A DNA stretch of 64,000 nucleotides from Clostridia bacterium (lineage in GTDB: Bacteria > Bacillota > Clostridia > Christensenellales > CAG-314), in NCBI GenBank assembly GCA_017500855.1, contig JAFVYC010000003.1, forward strand, positions 70,442 to 134,441. The letters are read 5' to 3'. Both the position numbers and the translations under genes were made by a program. Shown piece by piece: positions 4,360 through 11,884 of this stretch (positions within the stretch are counted from its first letter, which is position 1; every line of letters starts with the position of its first letter). The notes below the pieces were generated by a model, which saw nothing but the letters and a program-made list of their open reading frames with translations, was not told the DNA's origin and did no database searches.

Positions 4360-4538
4360 TATTCTGCTAAATGTGCCGTTTGCCTTGCGCATGCGTTTTT
4401 CCACGTCACTTTGCTGTTGCAATTGTGTTTCAGTTGAGCAACGTGTGGTACAATGCGCACCAACAAACGCACAAAACTATTGGCAAAACACCAAATATGC
4501 CCACAGGGCAAAGTGCACAGCACAAAAGGAGACATAAT

Positions 4539-6515
4539 TTGGAAAAAGATAAAAAAAGGAAAATAATATCGTCAATACTGGGCTTTGTTGCCTTTGCGTT
4601 GGTATTCGTTTTGCTTTGGAGTTTTCTAACACCAAAGCCGGAAGAAATTACCGAAGCAGATTTCCGCGAAAACATTGCTTCCTACACCGAAGTCAAGCTG
4701 AACTACTACGTCGTTTCTTGCAAGGACGCCAACAACAAAACGTACACGTTTGTCACAGCCGACAGGGCTTCCCTCAACGAGTACATTTTGGGCGCAATTG
4801 CCGACGATAGCGCCCCATCGCTAGACTACACGTCCACCAACCCCAACCAAGTGCGTTGGACGGACTACATCGAGCCGTTGCTTTTGGTTGCAGGCCTTGT
4901 GTTCCTTGTGTTCTTTATGTTCCGCATGATCGCCAGCCAAAACAACCAAAACATGGATTTTGGCCGTTCCCGTGCAAGGGCAGTGCAAAACATGAAGGTT
5001 CGCTTTACCGACGTTGCCGGCGCAGAAGAAGAAAAGGAAGAACTCAAAGAAATTGTAGACTTTTTGAAAGATCCCAAAAAGTACCACGAAATGGGCGCTC
5101 GTGTGCCAAAGGGCGTGTTGCTTGTTGGCCCTCCGGGAACAGGCAAAACGTTGTTTGCCAAAGCCGTTGCAGGCGAAGCAGGCGTGCCTTTCTTCTCCAT
5201 GAGTGGTAGCGACTTTGTGGAAATGTTTGTTGGTGTGGGCGCAAGCCGTGTTAGAGATTTGTTCGAACAAGCCAAAAAGAACATGCCTTGCATCATTTTC
5301 ATCGACGAAATTGACGCCGTTGGTCGCAAACGTGGCGCAGGCCTTGGTGGCGGTCACGACGAACGTGAGCAAACCCTAAACCAAATTCTTGTGGAAATGG
5401 ACGGTTTCGAAACCAACTCTTCCATCATCATTATGGCAGCAACCAACCGTGCGGACATTTTGGACCCAGCGTTGCTTCGCCCGGGCCGTTTCGACAGGCA
5501 AGTTTACGTAAACTACCCCGACGTTCGTGGACGTGAAGCAATTTTGAAAGTTCACGCACGCAAAAAGCCAATTGGCCCCGACGTTAACTTCCGCACCGTT
5601 GCCCGCATCACAGCAGGCTTTACCGGCGCAGATTTGGAAAACCTTTTGAATGAAGCGGCAATTCTTGCAGTAAGGGCCGGCCACAAGGTTATCACCATGG
5701 CAGACGTAAACGAGGGCATCAACAAAATTGTTATGGGCCCTGCAAAAAAATCTCGCTTGGTTACCGAGCCGGACAAGCGCATCACTGCCTACCACGAAGC
5801 AGGCCACGCAATTTTGGCTGCAAGCTTGAAGTACTGCGACCCCGTTCACGAAGTAACAATCATCCCACGTGGTTGGGCTTCCGGCTACACAATGACACGT
5901 CCGGAAAGCGACAACCAACACGTTTCCAAGCAAGAACTGTTGGATGACATCACAATGACGCTTGGTGGCCGTGTTGCCGAAGAATTGGTAATCAAAAACT
6001 TCTGCACGGGCGCAAGCCAAGATATCAAGCAAATCACCAAAACCGCACGCCAAATGGTTGCCGAATGGGGCATGAGCGAGCGCCTTGGCCCACTGTTCTA
6101 CGGTAGCGAAGGCGAAGTTTTTGTGGGCAACACCTACGGCCAAGAAAAGGGCTACAGCGAGGAAGTTGCCGCCATCATCGACGAAGAAGTGCGTGCAATT
6201 GTGGACGACTGCCACAAGCGCGCAACGCAAATCCTCACGGAAAAATTGGACGTTCTTCACGCAATGGCACGTGTGCTTTGGGAAAAGGAAACCATCCACA
6301 CCGAGGAAGTTGCAATGCTTATGGAAGGCAAAACTGCCGACGAAGTTATTGCGCACATGCAAGCAATGGAAGATGCGGAAAAAGCGCTTCACGCATCCAC
6401 ACCCGACGCAACGGAAAAAGCCCGTGCGTTTGCCAACGGCACAGCCAAGGGCGAAGCACCTGCGGAAACACCCGATGCCGAAAGCACCGACAGCACCCCC
6501 AAAACCGAAGAGTAG
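4539..6515 (+). CDS. ftsH: ATP-dependent zinc metalloprotease FtsH
   Basis: N-terminal TM segment, Walker A GPPGTGKT, Walker [12 protein letters not shown] region and HEAGH zinc site. The start is probably TTG 4539, 7 nt after AAAGGAGA; ATG 4497 is the alternative. The ORF-track start 4371 is unlikely. Confidence 0.95.
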
Positions 6516-6575: not shown

Positions 6576-6643
6576 ATACACGTGGTGGGGAGTTTACTAT
6601 TTTATCCTGATCAAGTCTCCAAGGATTTCATCAGTGAGAGTGG

Positions 6644-7319
6644 CTATTTCCGCAGCGCTTGCCTCCTAAACGTTTCGCAAAAAGCCAATTCCTCGGCCAA
6701 TGCTTTTTCGTAAGCGTCATCGGCTGTAATAGCTGAAGGTAGATGTTGACAAACTAGCAAACCTACTCTATCTGCAGTATATTCTGCACTCCTTACCCAA
6801 CTATAGCTTGCAATATCCAATCCAGTTGTTGCTAGTTATGCAAGAATGCTAGCATCGGTTATTTTCTTGATGACTGTATTGTAGAAATTTGCAAGCATTT
6901 TATATTACACGTGCTCACTCTTAATATGTCCTAACTCGTGACCAATAATATACATCAATTCTTCATGATTAAGAGAATGCAACAATCCACTGTACTAATA
7001 TAGGGTTTTGTATTCCAGTAGTGAAGGCATTCATAGATTCATCTAAACCTATATATACTTCTGGAAGCTTCACGATGCCCAAAATTTTACATGCTTTTTC
7101 TACACAATCAATCAAGTACGGCATGTTTTCTTTGGTTACCAAAAATGAAGAAGATTTGCTCCACAATAATGTTATTCTTTCGTAACTATATTCAACCATC
7201 TTCTTCACGACAGTATCGAAAGCCTTGTTTAACTTCAATGCCGAGAGTGTAGCGGAGTCGGTTGGATTTTCGTATTCTTTAGCATTCAATCCAATCAATG
7301 GTTTACCTTCAACACGCAC
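6644..7319 (-). pseudogene. Disrupted M48-family (HtpX/Ste24-like) zinc metallopeptidase
   Basis: The 116-aa ORF ends ...MNAFTTGIQNPILV. The HEXXH segment NHEELMYIIGHELGHIKSEHV continues in another frame. Two in-frame stops follow, then the conserved ...AEYTADRVGLLV region. That makes at least one frameshift and two stops. Confidence 0.7.
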
Positions 7320-7379
7320 ATCTTTAGAAATAAAATAACTCTAATTCACATTTCTCCTTTATAATTATAGCACGTTTAT

Positions 7380-8693
7380 TTACATTGGTGGAACTGGTGG
7401 TGCAAACAAGCCTTTCAACTCATCAACAGCGTCTGCTCGTGCCCAGTTTGGCATGCCGGCTTTCCACACCAAGGAATCTCTTTTGAGTGTGCCCGATGCA
7501 ATCATGCTTGTGAGCGTGGAAATGTCAAACGGGCCTGTAGATGCTCCATCTTTTGCAACGTTAAACATCACCTTTGGAATGGGTGGTGGTGCTTCAGCCG
7601 GAGTAGTAATTCCCGACATTGTCCCGCTTACAATTGATGCCATGCTTCGTCCAACAGCACCACCAACAGCCATGCTTGCCATCATTGCAGCAGGGTTAAA
7701 TCCTACCCCTCCTCCAAGACTTACCGAGCCTGCGCCCTTTTCGCCCATCTTGCCAAGAGCATCTGCGCCCGCCACACCAACTTCGGCTTGTTTTTCAATT
7801 TGGTATGCACCAATGTTGGCTGTTCTTGTGCCCATGTGCATTGCGTATTGCCCTTCTTCTCGTTGAATGCGCAAAGACTCGCCGTAGTTTTCAATATTTA
7901 TACCTGTTTGCGCTTTGATTGTTGTTGCGGTTACTTCCTTTGTGATGGCAACAAGGTCATGGTAGTCACTGCTAGACTTGTCAATTTCTATTGAAGAAAT
8001 ATCTACGCCAGTAACGACTACTCCAAAGGTTTCTTTGAATCTCGTTTTCAAAGAGATTTCCGCTTCTTCACTAACTCTTGATGTTTTGGATTCTATTTGA
8101 ACAATAGGGAATCCATGAGTAACCGACGCTGTAGATACAGCCTCTTTAACATAGCGACATGTAGCATCCTTAATTTGTGCTTGAAAAGTTTCAAAATCAA
8201 AGCTGTCAAGCCTATGGCACTTTATAAACTCTTTGTAATCTTCAATTTTGAAAGTTATAGTTCCCCTGACAGCTACTTGAATAGCGAAGTCTGGAAAACG
8301 AGGATCGCACACGTCAAAGAATGGAATAACAAAGCTTGTCTGCAATACGTGCGCCAAATTGATGAAGTAAATCTCCGCTTGGAAAGGAGTGTCACCACCC
8401 AGAAAGGCACCCATAATACTTGTTAAGATTGGCAAGTTGGCAGTTTTAAGTTTTTGGTCAAACGGACCAACAATAAAGTCTTGCATTGCGCCGCTTTTTT
8501 GTTTATACACGAACACTGCAACCTCGCCATCTTTAACTCTCACAGGAGAACCATTGCGAATGGCATATTCTCTTTTGTGTTCTCCTAGTTTTGTTCCGTC
8601 GGGATGCCATTTCCAAATCAAATAATCAAATTCGTCACAACGAATAACGTCGGCAATCAAACCAACTTTTTTGTCTTTTTTGAACAGCCCCAT
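7380..8693 (-). CDS. SPFH/band-7 domain protein of the YdjI type with a Gly/Ala-rich linker and a C-terminal GYF_2-like domain
   Basis: N-terminus MGLFKK...VIRCDEFDYLIWKWHP...GSPVRVKDGEVAVFVY is typical of YdjI/COG4260 proteins. The C-terminus GPFDISTLTSMIASGTLKRDSLVWKAGMPNWARADAVDELKGLF fits the GYF_2 pattern. ATG 8693 is preceded by GGAGA. Confidence 0.8.
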   Translation of the reverse strand: MGLFKKDKKVGLIADVIRCDEFDYLIWKWHPDGTKLGEHKREYAIRNGSPVRVKDGEVAVFVYKQKSGAMQDFIVGPFDQKLKTANLPILTSIMGAFLGGDTPFQAEIYFINLAHVLQTSFVIPFFDVCDPRFPDFAIQVAVRGTITFKIEDYKEFIKCHRLDSFDFETFQAQIKDATCRYVKEAVSTASVTHGFPIVQIESKTSRVSEEAEISLKTRFKETFGVVVTGVDISSIEIDKSSSDYHDLVAITKEVTATTIKAQTGINIENYGESLRIQREEGQYAMHMGTRTANIGAYQIEKQAEVGVAGADALGKMGEKGAGSVSLGGGVGFNPAAMMASMAVGGAVGRSMASIVSGTMSGITTPAEAPPPIPKVMFNVAKDGASTGPFDISTLTSMIASGTLKRDSLVWKAGMPNWARADAVDELKGLFAPPVPPM

Positions 8694-8710
8694 ATTTTTC
8701 TCCTTTATTT

Positions 8711-9421
8711 TTATTTCTTTACGCAAGCATAGATGATTGCGGGAATTCCTATTGTGTAAATATTAAGAACAATCCAAAATACTTTTGCTACGGGACTCCA
8801 CGTTGAAAATCCTCTTTTTTTAGCCTTACTACTTTCTGGAGTAACTGTCGTCGTACTGCTAACAGCAATTTGACGTTTCCTTTGATCTTCTGCTTCCTTG
8901 GCTTTCGATATACGATATTTTACCTTCAGATAATCCATCTCAATCTTGTCAAGTTCCATTCCCTTCAGAATAAGTTTGGCTTTCTGGTAACATTGTTCCA
9001 TTTTTGTTAGCCAAGCATCAGAAATATCTTCCTTATCTAAGTTTTTAACATACTGTTGGATGTCAAAATTCGAGTACGCCAAGTAGAAAAATTCAAATAT
9101 ATCTTCCTTGTTATTTGGAATTGGGAAAGTTCTTAATATGAAGATTCTTTTATCTTCCGTATCGGCTCTCACCATTCTTTCAGATAACTCCGCTAGAGAA
9201 CTTGAACCTTTTAATCCCCTCAGTTCTACACCACACGCAGGACAAACCGATGCAAAAGATTTCAAAACTTCCCCGCAATGCGGACATTTGTGTATTTCTC
9301 CATCAAACGTCGTTGTTCTTTGACTTGACTTCGTGGATTCTGCACCAACTTTTGTTCCACATCCGGCACAGAAGTTAGCTTCATCTGGCAATTGCTTGCC
9401 ACAATGCAAACAGTACTTCAT
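8711..9421 (-). CDS. Double zinc-ribbon protein with C-terminal TM anchor (YdjG-like)
   Basis: CxxC pairs at CLHCG...CAGCG and CPHCG...CPACG; C-terminal hydrophobic helix VFWIVLNIYTIGIPAIIYA. It sits immediately upstream of the SPFH gene, in the same order as B. subtilis ydjG..ydjI. ATG 9421 is preceded by AGGGGGAAG. Confidence 0.75.
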   Translation of the reverse strand: MKYCLHCGKQLPDEANFCAGCGTKVGAESTKSSQRTTTFDGEIHKCPHCGEVLKSFASVCPACGVELRGLKGSSSLAELSERMVRADTEDKRIFILRTFPIPNNKEDIFEFFYLAYSNFDIQQYVKNLDKEDISDAWLTKMEQCYQKAKLILKGMELDKIEMDYLKVKYRISKAKEAEDQRKRQIAVSSTTTVTPESSKAKKRGFSTWSPVAKVFWIVLNIYTIGIPAIIYACVKK

Positions 9422-9650
9422 GTTTTTTCTTCCCCCTAGAAATAAAAAATGCGACAACCGAAGTTGTCGCATAAAAACGCAAACCCCGATAGTCGCCAAA
9501 CTAATCCTTGCAAAATTGGTAAAACCAACACTTCAGAGAGGGAATTTGCATTTTGTCAAATTCATACTCCAAAGTGTACGCCAAAAAAGGGTAAAAAACT
9601 CCCCTAAAAAGAAAGTTCTACCTAATTTTGCAATATCAAGTTAGTTTGGC
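9422..9650 (-). promoter_or_regulatory. ~230-nt structured 5' leader of the zinc-ribbon/SPFH operon (riboswitch/attenuator candidate, class unknown)
   Basis: On the minus strand, GCCAAACUAA (9650-9641) pairs perfectly with UUAGUUUGGC (9504-9495), and UUGCAAAAUU pairs with AAUUUUGCAA. Together they close a ~150-nt domain. An intrinsic terminator (GCGACAAC-UUCG-GUUGUCGC + U-run, 9448-9475) follows just before the RBS. Confidence 0.5.
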
Positions 9651-9656
9651 TCTTCT

Positions 9657-9685
9657 ATTATGCTACAAAAAGAGCAGTTTGTCAA
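9657..9685 (-). promoter_or_regulatory. Sigma-A-type promoter for the leader/zinc-ribbon/SPFH transcript
   Basis: The minus strand reads TTGACA, 17 nt, CATAAT. The predicted start falls on the first G of the P1 helix at about 9650. Confidence 0.5.
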
Positions 9686-9732
9686 TACTTTCCAAGATAT
9701 TTAAGAAATAACTAAGATTGGAGGTAAAACTT

Positions 9733-9966
9733 ATGGACGATTTTAAGTGTTGGACTTGCGGCAGACCAACAGAATATGATGGAGAAGGATACTGGAAATG
9801 TTCGCATTGCAACGAATCCTTTTACGAGGGATATGACGAAGATGGCAATCCCGAGGGTGGAGATGTATTAAGTGTTTATGACGCGGCTTTAATATGGGTT
9901 TCACACGGTAGGGACGAAGATTACATGTTTGGCTATACCGAAGAAGAGCTTGAAGATGCTCTTTAA
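9733..9966 (+). CDS. Small zinc-ribbon protein with acidic C-terminal half (hypothetical)
   Basis: MDDFKCWTCG...CSHCN motif; GGAGG lies 8 nt upstream of ATG 9733; a terminator follows. Confidence 0.6.
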   Translation: MDDFKCWTCGRPTEYDGEGYWKCSHCNESFYEGYDEDGNPEGGDVLSVYDAALIWVSHGRDEDYMFGYTEEELEDAL

Positions 9967-9989
9967 TGGTAAAAACTTCAAACAAACCA

Positions 9990-10014
9990 GGAGAGCCGTG
10001 GCTCTCCTTTTTTA
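9990..10014 (+). terminator. Intrinsic terminator
   Basis: GGAGAGC / GCTCTCC stem followed by TTTTTT. Confidence 0.75.
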
Positions 10015-10084
10015 TACCCACTGTGTGGCCTAGTATTAGCCTGTTGTTAGTGTGTATTGAATATTTTTTTGTCTGTAAATCTCT

Positions 10085-10112
10085 TGACATTATAGGTATT
10101 TGCTGTATAATA
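10085..10112 (+). promoter_or_regulatory. Sigma-A-type promoter
   Basis: TTGACA (10085-10090), 16-nt spacer, TATAAT (10107-10112). Confidence 0.6.
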
Positions 10113-10118
10113 TATATA

Positions 10119-10248
10119 CCATAAAGAGTGCGTGAGGGACAGCCCCGTTGACCGCACAGCAACCTACTAAAATTAGCAAGGTGCTAAAGGCTGAACGATG
10201 GGTATATATTTATGCGCGCACCCCATCGTATCGATGGGTTTTTCTTTT
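10119..10248 (+). promoter_or_regulatory. Riboswitch-like leader with mutually exclusive terminator/antiterminator (class not recognised)
   Basis: Two hairpins: GTGCG...CGCAC, and AGCAACCT...AGGTGCT with one bulge. CGATGGG (10196-10202) duplicates the 3' arm of the terminator CCCATCG-TAT-CGATGGG + TTTTTCTTTT (10221-10248), so it can compete for the 5' arm. Confidence 0.5.
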
Positions 10249-10287
10249 GCCTCTTTGTGGAAATATTTACGCAAAGGAGATTGCAAA

Positions 10288-10593
10288 ATGAAACGAAGAA
10301 CACTCAAAAGTTTAATGAAGCCCCAAAAGAAGGTTTATGTATTTATTCATTCCGAATGGGCTGCGCAGGCATTTTTTGCTCTAGCAAAATACGAAGGATT
10401 TACATTGTCTGAAAGGTTAAAAAACAGGGAAGCCGTCACTGATATTTTGATTGTTGGGCTAAATGCTGATATGAAACTTATACATATTAAACCATGCTGT
10501 CAGTCGGAAGCAATGATGTGGCATCACATTCTCACAGGCAATCGTTATAAAAACGAAATCTGGATAGATTTCGAAACAATGTTGTATAGCTAA
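10288..10593 (+). CDS. Hypothetical protein (101 aa)
   Basis: ATG 10288 is preceded by AAAGGAGA. No family recognised. Confidence 0.6.
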   Translation: MKRRTLKSLMKPQKKVYVFIHSEWAAQAFFALAKYEGFTLSERLKNREAVTDILIVGLNADMKLIHIKPCCQSEAMMWHHILTGNRYKNEIWIDFETMLYS

Positions 10594-10604
10594 GGAGAAA
10601 GATT

Positions 10605-10817
10605 ATGCGAAATATACACGATTCAGGCGAATACGATAAATACAAAAACACATCGGGAGAACATGGAGGCTCGGGTTGTTGTGGTTGGATTGTTATTGTA
10701 GTTGTAGTGGCTATGCTGATTTCTTTTATTGCTGACGGTGCAAGTTGGGATGCGATAGATACATTGCTAGGGTTGGGCCTAATTTTATACTGGTTCATAA
10801 AGTGGATGTCTAGATAA
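10605..10817 (+). CDS. Small membrane protein (70 aa) with GGSGCCGW motif and two hydrophobic helices
   Basis: AAGGAGAAAG RBS lies 5 nt upstream; TM-like segments IVIVVVVAMLISFIA and LGLGLILYWFI. Confidence 0.6.
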   Translation: MRNIHDSGEYDKYKNTSGEHGGSGCCGWIVIVVVVAMLISFIADGASWDAIDTLLGLGLILYWFIKWMSR

Positions 10818-10845
10818 ATGGTACTATTATACACACTCATCCGCA

Positions 10846-10870
10846 AGGAGAGCTTCGGCTCTCCTTTTTC
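10846..10870 (+). terminator. Intrinsic terminator; right edge of the AT-rich island
   Basis: AGGAGAGC-TTCG-GCTCTCCT followed by a T-run. Confidence 0.8.
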
Positions 10871-11095
10871 ATGCCCTTTTGTCTGTCAACCCCTGCAAAA
10901 TATCTTTACAGTTATAGATTTTGCTATTGCAATATAATAATGGCGAGCCATTTCCCCAATAACTGCTGTTTGCAAAACACAACGTGTACCCAAAAAATGG
11001 TGGCTGTTTGTTTTCTACCTACGTCAAGTAGTGTCGTTATTTTGTTCAATGCTCCACCCAAACACCATCTCCCAAAATTGTTTTTCCCAAACGTA

Positions 11096-11124
11096 TTGAC
11101 ATTGTGGGCGAGAAAATGTATAAT
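11096..11124 (+). promoter_or_regulatory. Sigma-A-type promoter of deoD
   Basis: TTGACA, 17-nt spacer, TATAAT. Confidence 0.6.
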
Positions 11125-11176
11125 AGTGGTATGGCTGGCCGTGACATTGGCTACAATCTACTTTGGAGGAACAACT

Positions 11177-11884
11177 ATGTCTCAAATCAAAACACCCCAC
11201 ATTTGCGCAAGCAAGGAAGATTTTGCCCCAACCGTGCTTATGCCGGGCGATCCACTTCGTGCAAAGTTCATTGCAGAAACCTATCTCACCGACGCAGTTC
11301 TTGTAAACAACGTGCGTGGCGTTCAAGGCTACACAGGCTACTACAAGGGCAAGCGTGTGTCCGTCATGGCAAGTGGCATGGGCATGCCATCCATCGGCAT
11401 CTACAGCTACGAATTGTTCAACACTTTTGGCGTGCAAAACATCATTCGCATTGGTTCGGCAGGAAGCGTTCAACCGGATTTGCACGTTCGCAACCTTGTG
11501 TTTGGCCAAGGCGCATGCACCAACAGCGCCTACGCAACTCAGTTTGGCTTGAACGGCACACTTGCGCCAATTGCAAGCTACACCTTGTTGGAAAAAGCAG
11601 TGGAAACAGCAAAGCAAATGGGCCTTACCTACAAAGTTGGCAACGTGCTCAGTAGCGACACTTTCTACGACGACGGCGAAGGCGCAATTGCTTGGCAAAA
11701 GATGGGCGTGCTTGCTGTGGAAATGGAAGCCGCTGCATTGTACCTCAACGCCGCACGCTGTGGCAAAAACGCTTTGTGCATTTGCACAATTTCCGACAGC
11801 CTTGTAACAGGCGAAGCGCTTTCCGCAGAGCAACGCCAAACGTCCTTCCACGAAATGATGGAACTTGCATTGACAATTGCCTAA
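11177..11884 (+). CDS. deoD: Purine nucleoside phosphorylase, DeoD type
   Basis: MSQIKTPHI...VLMPGDPLRAKFIAE...GMGMPSIGIYSYEL...RIGSAGS...VEMEAAALY. GGAGG RBS. The N-terminal 102 aa of the tracked ORF were discarded. Confidence 0.95.
   Translation: MSQIKTPHICASKEDFAPTVLMPGDPLRAKFIAETYLTDAVLVNNVRGVQGYTGYYKGKRVSVMASGMGMPSIGIYSYELFNTFGVQNIIRIGSAGSVQPDLHVRNLVFGQGACTNSAYATQFGLNGTLAPIASYTLLEKAVETAKQMGLTYKVGNVLSSDTFYDDGEGAIAWQKMGVLAVEMEAAALYLNAARCGKNALCICTISDSLVTGEALSAEQRQTSFHEMMELALTIA

Follow-up and report, generated by a model that had tools for sequence, protein, structure and literature searches.

The window analysed here, a stretch of 64,000 nucleotides (nt) from the genome of a Clostridia bacterium (assembly GCA_017500855.1, contig JAFVYC010000003.1, positions 70,442 to 134,441 of the forward strand), contains at 9422-9685 of its minus strand the promoter and 5' leader of a zinc-ribbon/SPFH gene pair. 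This leader probably functions as a cis-acting transcription attenuator, being one of an uncatalogued family of 5' leader RNAs of about 205 nt. Members of the family occupy a fixed position between promoter and gene and share the same helices, including three mutually exclusive helix layers that end in an intrinsic terminator; these are the hallmarks of a multi-segment attenuator.

At the window locus, the leader RNA is about 205-210 nt long and folds into a long rod followed by a UUCG-capped terminator. The 231-nt RNA reaches a minimum free energy (MFE) of -77.3 kcal/mol, compared to -49.4 +/- 4.2 kcal/mol for 200 dinucleotide shuffles (z = -6.65), none of which (0/200) was as good. A preliminary description of the stretch had already reported a minus-strand promoter (TTGACA-17-CATAAT), a predicted start coinciding with the 5' arm of a closing helix P1, perfect pairing of this helix (GCCAAACUAA, 9650-9641, with UUAGUUUGGC, 9504-9495; 136 nt is the number of bases between the arms), a second helix of 10 base pairs (bp; UUGCAAAAUU, 9633-9624, with AAUUUUGCAA, 9517-9508), a local hairpin (GAAUUUG, 9563-9557, and CAAAUUC, 9548-9542) and a strong intrinsic terminator immediately 5' of the ribosome-binding site (RBS). 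All of these were recovered, and the predicted transcription start, G9650, is the first base of P1, 7 nt past the -10 box. The parts of the locus are as follows (all minus strand):

9657..9685: sigma-70-type promoter, TTGACA (9685-9680), 17-nt spacer, CATAAT (9662-9657), 11 of 12 consensus matches
9639..9650: P1, 5' strand (GCCAAACUAACU), starting at the predicted 5' end of the RNA
9634..9638: asymmetric bulge separating P1 from P2 (UGAUA in the window copy, mostly AAUA in the family)
9612..9633: P2, 5' strand (UUGCAAAAUU.GGUAGAACU)
9583..9604: P3 hairpin of the predicted fold, GGGG/CCCU followed by U6; GGG...CCC plus U5-7 recurs in most members
9528..9577: P4-P5 hairpin, P4 being formed by ACACUUUGGAG (9577-9567) and CUCUGAAGUGU (9538-9528)
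9563-9557: segment S1 (GAAUUUG), 5' arm of P5
9555-9541: segment S2 (CAAAAUGCAAAUUCC), A-rich loop and 3' arm of P5, with the core GCAAAUUCC
9508..9527: P2, 3' strand, pairing with 9633-9612
9495..9507: P1, 3' strand (GGAUUAGUUUGGC)
9474..9492: segment S3 (C-UAUC-GGGGUUUGCGUUUU), 5' strand of the antiterminator or partner of S2
9455..9472: segment S4 (AUGCGACAACUUCGGUUG), 3' strand of the antiterminator, holding the 5' arm and loop of the terminator
9439..9472: intrinsic terminator, AUGCGACAAC-UUCG-GUUGUCGCAU (9472-9449), then the U-tract UUUUUAUUU (9448-9439)
9419..9436: RBS GGGGGAAG (9436-9429) and start codon ATG (9421-9419) of the controlled gene
9421-8714: first controlled gene, encoding a 236-amino-acid (aa) double-zinc-ribbon protein with a C-terminal transmembrane (TM) segment
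8726-7383: second controlled gene, encoding a 448-aa SPFH (Band_7_1) and GYF_2 protein

P4 encloses P5 (GAAUUUG-ACAAAAUG-CAAAUUC, 9563-9542), and the 3' flank of P1 reads GAC-UAUC-GGGGUUUGCGUUUUU before the terminator begins. The terminator ends 22 nt ahead of the start codon of the gene pair, whose two reading frames (7383..9421) share 13 nt. This gap is too short for a separate promoter, and a promoter scan of 97 members revealed none conserved there.

The leader is present as a single copy in its own 1.5-Mb genome. When 60 relatives were searched with blastn, 19 of 36 congeners proved to carry 1-3 copies, as did members of five other families of the order, and a different gene lies behind each copy. 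A pattern derived from the conserved 3' block and scanned over one genome per species detected at least 120 loci. A covariance model built from 26 copies (its E-values are rough owing to short calibration, bit scores being unaffected) confirmed about 88 full-length matches with 100-179 bits among the first 100 loci, and 99 matches were obtained in a second set. More than 100 copies are thus confirmed by the model at 100-184 bits, from metagenome-assembled genomes of gut and rumen Clostridia and from a few phage contigs.

Helices were assessed in a 99-sequence alignment comprising 97 distinct sequences. The pairing of S2 with S3 as well as the terminator were absent from the aligning model, so that their pairing counts are not fitted. 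P1 is paired in 98.9% of cells, and 11 of its 12 pairs show compensatory changes among the 97 distinct sequences. P2 and P4 differ almost wholly in sequence between copies, and their strands still fit within each copy: the duplex formed with the own partner has -15.7 kcal/mol for P2 and -16.8 kcal/mol for P4, as opposed to -7.1 and -6.0 kcal/mol, respectively, with strands crossed between copies (for P4, 98% of the own values are below the crossed 5th percentile). P5 is paired in 94%, with both stem and loop conserved in sequence, and 83 of the 97 copies fold alike, i.e., into a rod with two inner hairpins. A lack of conservation or covariation in homologous loci, which the preliminary description had named as speaking against its reading, is thus not what is seen; about 100 relatives show both conservation and covariation of the helices.

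The segments S1 to S5 can engage in alternative pairings. S2 (AAAAAUGCAAAUUCC) is complementary to S3 (GGAGUUUGCGUUUUU), with 98.8% of cells paired and a helix of 14-16 bp in 89 of the 97 copies; in the window copy it comprises 14 bp (-16.6 kcal/mol). In its family form, S3 reads GGRGUUUGCGUUUUU and is located 3-6 nt past P1, S4 reads CGUGCG..ACUUCGGUUG, and S5 consists of GUUGGCGCAC plus the U-tract. The antiterminator S3:S4 is paired in 93.2%, column 234 covarying with column 275 (AU 51, UA 26, UG 11), and it is this hairpin, not the terminator, that RNAalifold predicts. The terminator S4:S5 is paired in 99%, with compensatory changes in 6 of 10 pairs, and column 275 also covaries with column 266. 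Since the same column covaries with both 234 and 266, each of the two mutually exclusive helices is supported.

Four short variants (L170-L173; 137-168 nt, 53-72 bits) are devoid of P3, P4 and the three-way junction. They have new S1, S2 and S3 sequences and yet retain S1:S2 (9-14 bp), S2:S3 (14-16 bp) and S3:S4 (9-13 bp), indicating that the conserved core of the family consists of P1 and the cascade of five segments. Nearly every conserved base of the family has two pairing partners, the exceptions being the AAUA bulge and the sequence of P1. Such double pairing duty suffices to account for the unusual degree of sequence conservation, and no ligand pocket is apparent. For the bulge (conservation of A, A, U and A 76, 89, 77 and 72%; alignment columns 14-20, corresponding to 9638-9634 in the window), which is kept in the short variants, no pairing partner was found in either state, making it the best candidate contact for whatever sets the switch.

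The position of the RNA is as constant as its structure. The -10 box ends 5-10 nt ahead of the first P1 base in 73 of the 97 distinct copies, and no other promoter position, sense or antisense, collects more than 6 of 97 copies per 10-nt bin. At most loci, an open reading frame (ORF) with an RBS follows in the same orientation. Of 74 loci, 34 have the start codon no more than 20 nt from the modelled 3' end, and 48 no more than 40 nt from it. With a start codon so close behind the terminator, the gene would be transcribed only by read-through, which argues for a cis-acting element. These data also bear on the view that the locus represents a stand-alone small RNA (sRNA) gene of about 205 nt with a constitutive terminator, in which case the genes behind would be mere neighbours and the alternative pairings incidental. 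An own promoter, a strong terminator and the higher stability of the terminating helices (see below) would fit such a gene, and terminated riboswitch leaders do act in trans elsewhere (SreA/SreB of Listeria). Nevertheless, it is very unlikely, given the RBS-bearing ORFs on the same strand behind most copies and an antiterminator that covaries (234/275) and is kept with new sequences in the short variants, which would be unexpected of incidental pairings. Moreover, there is no conserved promoter between terminator and gene, so that on the sRNA reading these genes would have no transcription.

An origin at the level of DNA is extremely improbable. P1 constitutes an inverted repeat of 10-13 bp bounding about 140 bp, and the multiple, patchily distributed copies in AT-rich islets, often adjoining tRNA genes, are reminiscent of a miniature inverted-repeat transposable element or of an invertible promoter switch bounded by the P1 repeat. 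However, the promoter lies outside the repeat and would therefore not be switched by inversion, all confirmed copies are oriented alike relative to promoter and gene, there are just 1-4 copies per genome, and the most conserved block (S3-S5) is located outside the repeat. The inner helices P2 and P4 covary with free sequence. G-U wobbles are conserved at doubly used positions; they would be mismatches in DNA and are a prediction of a bistable RNA, arguing for pairing of RNA rather than of DNA.

An attenuator of the following kind is the best explanation. Transcription would start at G9650, the first base of P1, and the nascent RNA would fold into the P1-P2 rod, ending in a junction with the P3 hairpin and the long P4-P5 hairpin. 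In the ON state, S2 would be kept in the local hairpin S1:S2 (P5), leaving S3 to pair with S4; this antiterminator would use up the 5' arm and loop of the terminator, and the polymerase would read into the gene. In the OFF state, S3 would capture S2 in a long-range pairing of 14-16 bp, a pseudoknot relative to P1, and S4 would be free for S5, resulting in termination 22 nt ahead of the start codon. The helices have mean energies of -18.2 (S2:S3), -3.4 (P5), -15.0 (antiterminator) and -14.5 kcal/mol (terminator); when these are summed, the terminating set exceeds the read-through set in stability by about 14 kcal/mol. Based on these nearest-neighbour sums, OFF is taken with moderate confidence as the default, read-through then being the state stabilised or kinetically favoured by some input. 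P3 is possibly a pause element, and the choice could be timed by pausing at the conserved U-runs that follow P3 and separate S3 from S4.

Several points weigh against this interpretation. The 5' end, termination and read-through are all predicted from sequence, and the family members are related by descent and do not represent independent samples. S2:S3 crosses P1, and its formation as a pseudoknot with P1, P2 and P4 intact is what we infer; the lengths of P1+P2 and P4+P5 are uncorrelated (r = -0.01, from a noisy MFE-based parsing), leaving unsupported a fold-back geometry in which P4-P5 would lie along P1-P2 and S2 would thereby reach S3. Without the pseudoknot, which RNAfold cannot form, the MFE structure is the read-through fold. 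Changes in S2:S3 within the main family are mostly one-sided, to wobbles, and few are fully compensatory; clear compensations come from the four diverged variants alone. Finally, no sensor was identified, and the conservation of the AAUA bulge and of the P1 sequence lies outside the pairing explanation.

As for the input to the attenuator, a small molecule or ion of universal occurrence and a protein or RNA factor are both tentative candidates, each about as plausible as the other. A purely kinetic read-out of polymerase speed or of pausing at the conserved U-runs is a rather unlikely trigger, and the same holds for something else altogether. Spread on phages and islands favours a signal that is available in any host. 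One may speculate, with due reserve, that the family constitutes a new class of sensor RNA, either a riboswitch responding to a small molecule or ion that is present everywhere, or a device that reads polymerase speed and pausing without any factor, carried as a promoter-plus-switch cassette by mobile accessory genes and phage morons.

The preliminary description had taken the architecture for that of a classic riboswitch. A promoter-proximal leader closed by P1, a terminator before the RBS and mutually exclusive terminator and antiterminator helices bear this out in part; an aptamer is doubtful, the conserved bases being almost all explained by alternative pairings, the junction being dispensable in the short variants and the cargo genes being unrelated. 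In the strict sense of a P1-P2-junction domain that binds a small molecule or ion, locks or releases P5 and thereby sets the terminator, a riboswitch is possible but doubtful. It would agree with an aptamer-like domain placed directly before a terminator/antiterminator platform, with several copies per genome before different genes, as known from second-messenger riboswitches, with a conserved bulge that has no pairing partner, and with a portable cassette on phages and islands, which favours a universal signal over a dedicated host protein. Against it, double pairing duty accounts for nearly all conserved bases, conservation is poor at the junction, the short variants keep the switch in spite of lacking P3, P4 and the three-way junction, and the cargo genes have no common pathway. 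The obvious analogue for regulons of surface proteins, cyclic di-GMP (c-di-GMP), is also an unlikely ligand. GGDEF was not found in this genome (92% complete) nor in 4 of 5 other carriers (94-100% complete), the fifth containing it, so that c-di-GMP is probably not made; a c-di-GMP regulon, considered by analogy of the cargo, was rejected on these grounds. The genome does encode a c-di-AMP cyclase. Most Firmicutes possess this enzyme, and its presence therefore says little.

Alternatively, attenuation or antitermination may depend on a protein or a trans-acting RNA that binds P5 and its A-rich loop, or S3, following a PyrR- or pT181-like logic. Protein-bound attenuators of such logic are well established (PyrR, TRAP, BglG/SacY family), the stem and loop of P5 are conserved in sequence and not just in pairing, and the switch needs an input that the RNA itself does not reveal. 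This possibility is likewise considered rather doubtful. Pairing with S3 already explains the sequence conservation of P5, and within +/-3.5 kb of 121 copies there is no recurrent neighbouring gene, regulators included, beyond the cargo families. A conserved antisense promoter is absent. Hfq was not found in this genome (92% complete) nor in 5 other carriers, and CsrA was not found in this genome; like c-di-GMP, these two RNA-binding proteins are thus unlikely inputs. A dedicated host factor would furthermore fit poorly with the patchy, apparently horizontal spread and the carriage by phages.

The genes placed under control of the presumed attenuator are diverse. A Pfam tally of 68 downstream proteins gave LRR_5 (BspA-type; 10), zinc ribbons (5), AMP-binding (3) and MazE/AbrB (3), the rest being singletons. 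Of 74 downstream proteins, 50 possess TM- or signal-peptide-like segments and 21 a lipobox-like motif. The cell envelope is the sole common theme, i.e., there is no coherent functional gene set as would characterize a riboswitch regulon, and the tie to ydjG/ydjI-like operons proposed in the preliminary description has to be given up, since the zinc-ribbon/SPFH pair is one of many cargoes. A defence-system cargo was rejected, as only a few methyltransferases match PADLOC models.

In an even sample of the order, 22 of 151 genomes from about a dozen families carry 1-4 copies. Despite this patchy distribution, the sequences are 75-89% identical. All named hosts, according to record labels, are uncultured gut or rumen Clostridia (Acutalibacteraceae, Oscillospiraceae, Christensenellaceae, Ca. 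Borkfalkiaceae, Ca. Fimenecus, Faecousia and others). A plasmid collection gave no match. Copies are present on IMG/VR viral contigs and in the uncultured faecal phage MT835503, where they precede genes for an EcoRI-type methyltransferase, small membrane proteins and lipoproteins in the vicinity of terminase or serine recombinase genes, resembling morons. Of 60 loci scanned, 12 have a tRNA or transfer-messenger RNA (tmRNA) gene on the strand of the leader, no more than 420 nt upstream of it. The loci concerned are:

L164, 6439-6648: copy on a phage or viral contig
L168 (MT835503), 338-535: copy on a phage or viral contig
L152, 3650-3856: copy on a phage or viral contig
L154, L159, L162: further copies on phage or viral contigs
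L017, L052, L065, L071, L077, L082, L087, L112, L120, L123, L131, L133: loci with a tRNA or tmRNA gene upstream

At three further loci (L061, L140, L168) the tRNA or tmRNA gene is divergent and within 180 nt. This adjacency is far above chance and suggests leader-gene cassettes at tRNA-linked insertion spots; it is much more frequent than expected from how tRNA genes are spaced, and it fits an insertion of islands or cassettes. At one of these loci (L082), a Gut-1 RNA (RF01706, 74 bits) is located at 2890-2967 on the minus strand, about 2.6 kb from the leader copy and beside tRNA genes. Another locus (L169, G080:C37, minus strand) contains two family members in tandem, at 598-435 and 356-164 and 79 nt apart; the upstream member is of the short type and its P1 is degenerate, the downstream member has full length, and the pair could be a stacked attenuator.

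The surroundings of the window copy differ from its flanks in composition, the region from about 6600 to 11000 having a GC content of 35-41% as compared to 48-52% in the flanks, which places the leader in a small accessory island. This AT-rich islet contains the leader, its zinc-ribbon/SPFH cargo, a divergent zinc-ribbon-like ORF and an S-adenosylmethionine (SAM) riboswitch unit:

4371-6515: ftsH, flanking gene
9733-9966: 77-aa zinc-ribbon-like ORF, divergent, upstream of the leader, with a two-way terminator at 9989-10008
10084-10248, plus strand: SAM-I riboswitch unit
10871-11884: PNP_UDP_1 phosphorylase gene, flanking gene

The SAM-I riboswitch (RF00162, 53.2 bits; 10116-10205) belongs to a known class and is unrelated to the leader. 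Its unit has a perfect promoter (TTGACA-16-TATAAT, 10084-10111) and a terminator (10222-10238), and the sole ORF behind it (10198-10593) encodes a protein of 131 aa without Pfam match. The presumed attenuator would account for the transcription of the zinc-ribbon/SPFH pair on this island.

Little is known about how genes are regulated in the uncultured Clostridia dominating the hindguts of ruminants and humans. In the present family, a single compact RNA module equipped with a promoter precedes hundreds of unrelated accessory genes, encoding BspA-type adhesin-like proteins with leucine-rich repeats, lipoproteins, zinc-ribbon membrane proteins, SPFH proteins, methyltransferases and phage morons. 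If the attenuator proposed here is confirmed, the family would represent either an additional orphan riboswitch class or a self-contained attenuator of a new type, and identification of its signal would uncover a control of the variable cell surface that these bacteria share; as a sensor RNA, the family would exert common control over which surface and envelope proteins they display. With nearly every conserved base serving two helices, the family may also provide a clean test case for co-transcriptional strand-exchange switching.

The family belongs to no catalogued class, even though the logic of its switch (terminator, antiterminator, anti-antiterminator) is known. Rfam 15 gave no match in the leader at the gathering level, and under relaxed conditions the best matches (E = 0.32-0.58) were far below thresholds, in agreement with the preliminary impression that the leader resembles no known riboswitch, T-box or leader class; nor did Rfam 15 match 9 other family members. 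Literature searches, whether for the conserved strings or for a motif of this description, returned nothing relevant. In the first 200 of 408 supplementary files of a survey of structured RNAs from the human microbiome (PMC8040213), the conserved strings are absent; an unnamed entry elsewhere is possible.

Several individual classes were rejected. For a T-box, there is neither an Rfam match nor a conserved UGGN bulge in the antiterminator. Attenuation by a leader peptide is contradicted by the AUG in the P5 loop, which lacks conservation (27 of 97 copies have C in column 137), is devoid of an RBS and opens frames of varying phase and length. A type I toxin-antitoxin system was dismissed, as the match to the SR6 antitoxin reaches only 20.8 bits (gathering threshold 55, E = 0.32), and neither an ORF nor an antisense promoter is conserved. 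Countertranscript attenuation of the pT181 type was discarded, because antisense promoter-like sites are scattered (at most 6 of 97 copies per 10-nt bin).

Among established systems, the c-di-GMP riboswitches of Clostridia (GEMM-I, class II) are similar to the family in occurrence, with several copies per genome before unrelated surface, adhesin and envelope genes and also on phages. They differ in being recognized by Rfam and in relying on a messenger whose GGDEF enzymes were not found in this genome nor in 4 of 5 other carriers. Riboswitches of the ZTP/pfl, fluoride and preQ1-I types likewise have an upstream loop that pairs with a segment 5' of the terminator region and thereby decides the outcome. 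Theirs is a short pseudoknot that lines the conserved pocket for the ligand and often switches genes ON, whereas that of the family comprises 14-16 bp and would turn the gene OFF, a pocket is not evident, and the junction domain is dispensable in the short variants. In trp-type attenuators, successive segments can also pair with either neighbour, the occupation of the first deciding the fate of the last. These have four segments rather than the five of the family, whose leader contains neither leader peptide nor RBS; about 30% of members lack the AUG of the P5 loop. Ribosome coupling is not to be expected in Firmicutes. The closest parallels in logic are the S-box/SAM-I platform and the PyrR-controlled pyr leaders, which are also located between promoter and gene, combine three exclusive helix layers with an intrinsic terminator and contain an upstream element that sequesters the 5' strand of the antiterminator, such that the terminator forms. 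There is no similarity in sequence or model to these leaders. The anti-antiterminator of the family is not a neighbouring nested helix; it comprises 14-16 bp, recruits loop and arm of a distal hairpin and crosses P1. A fourth competing helix (S1:S2) is added, and the controlled genes share no common pathway.

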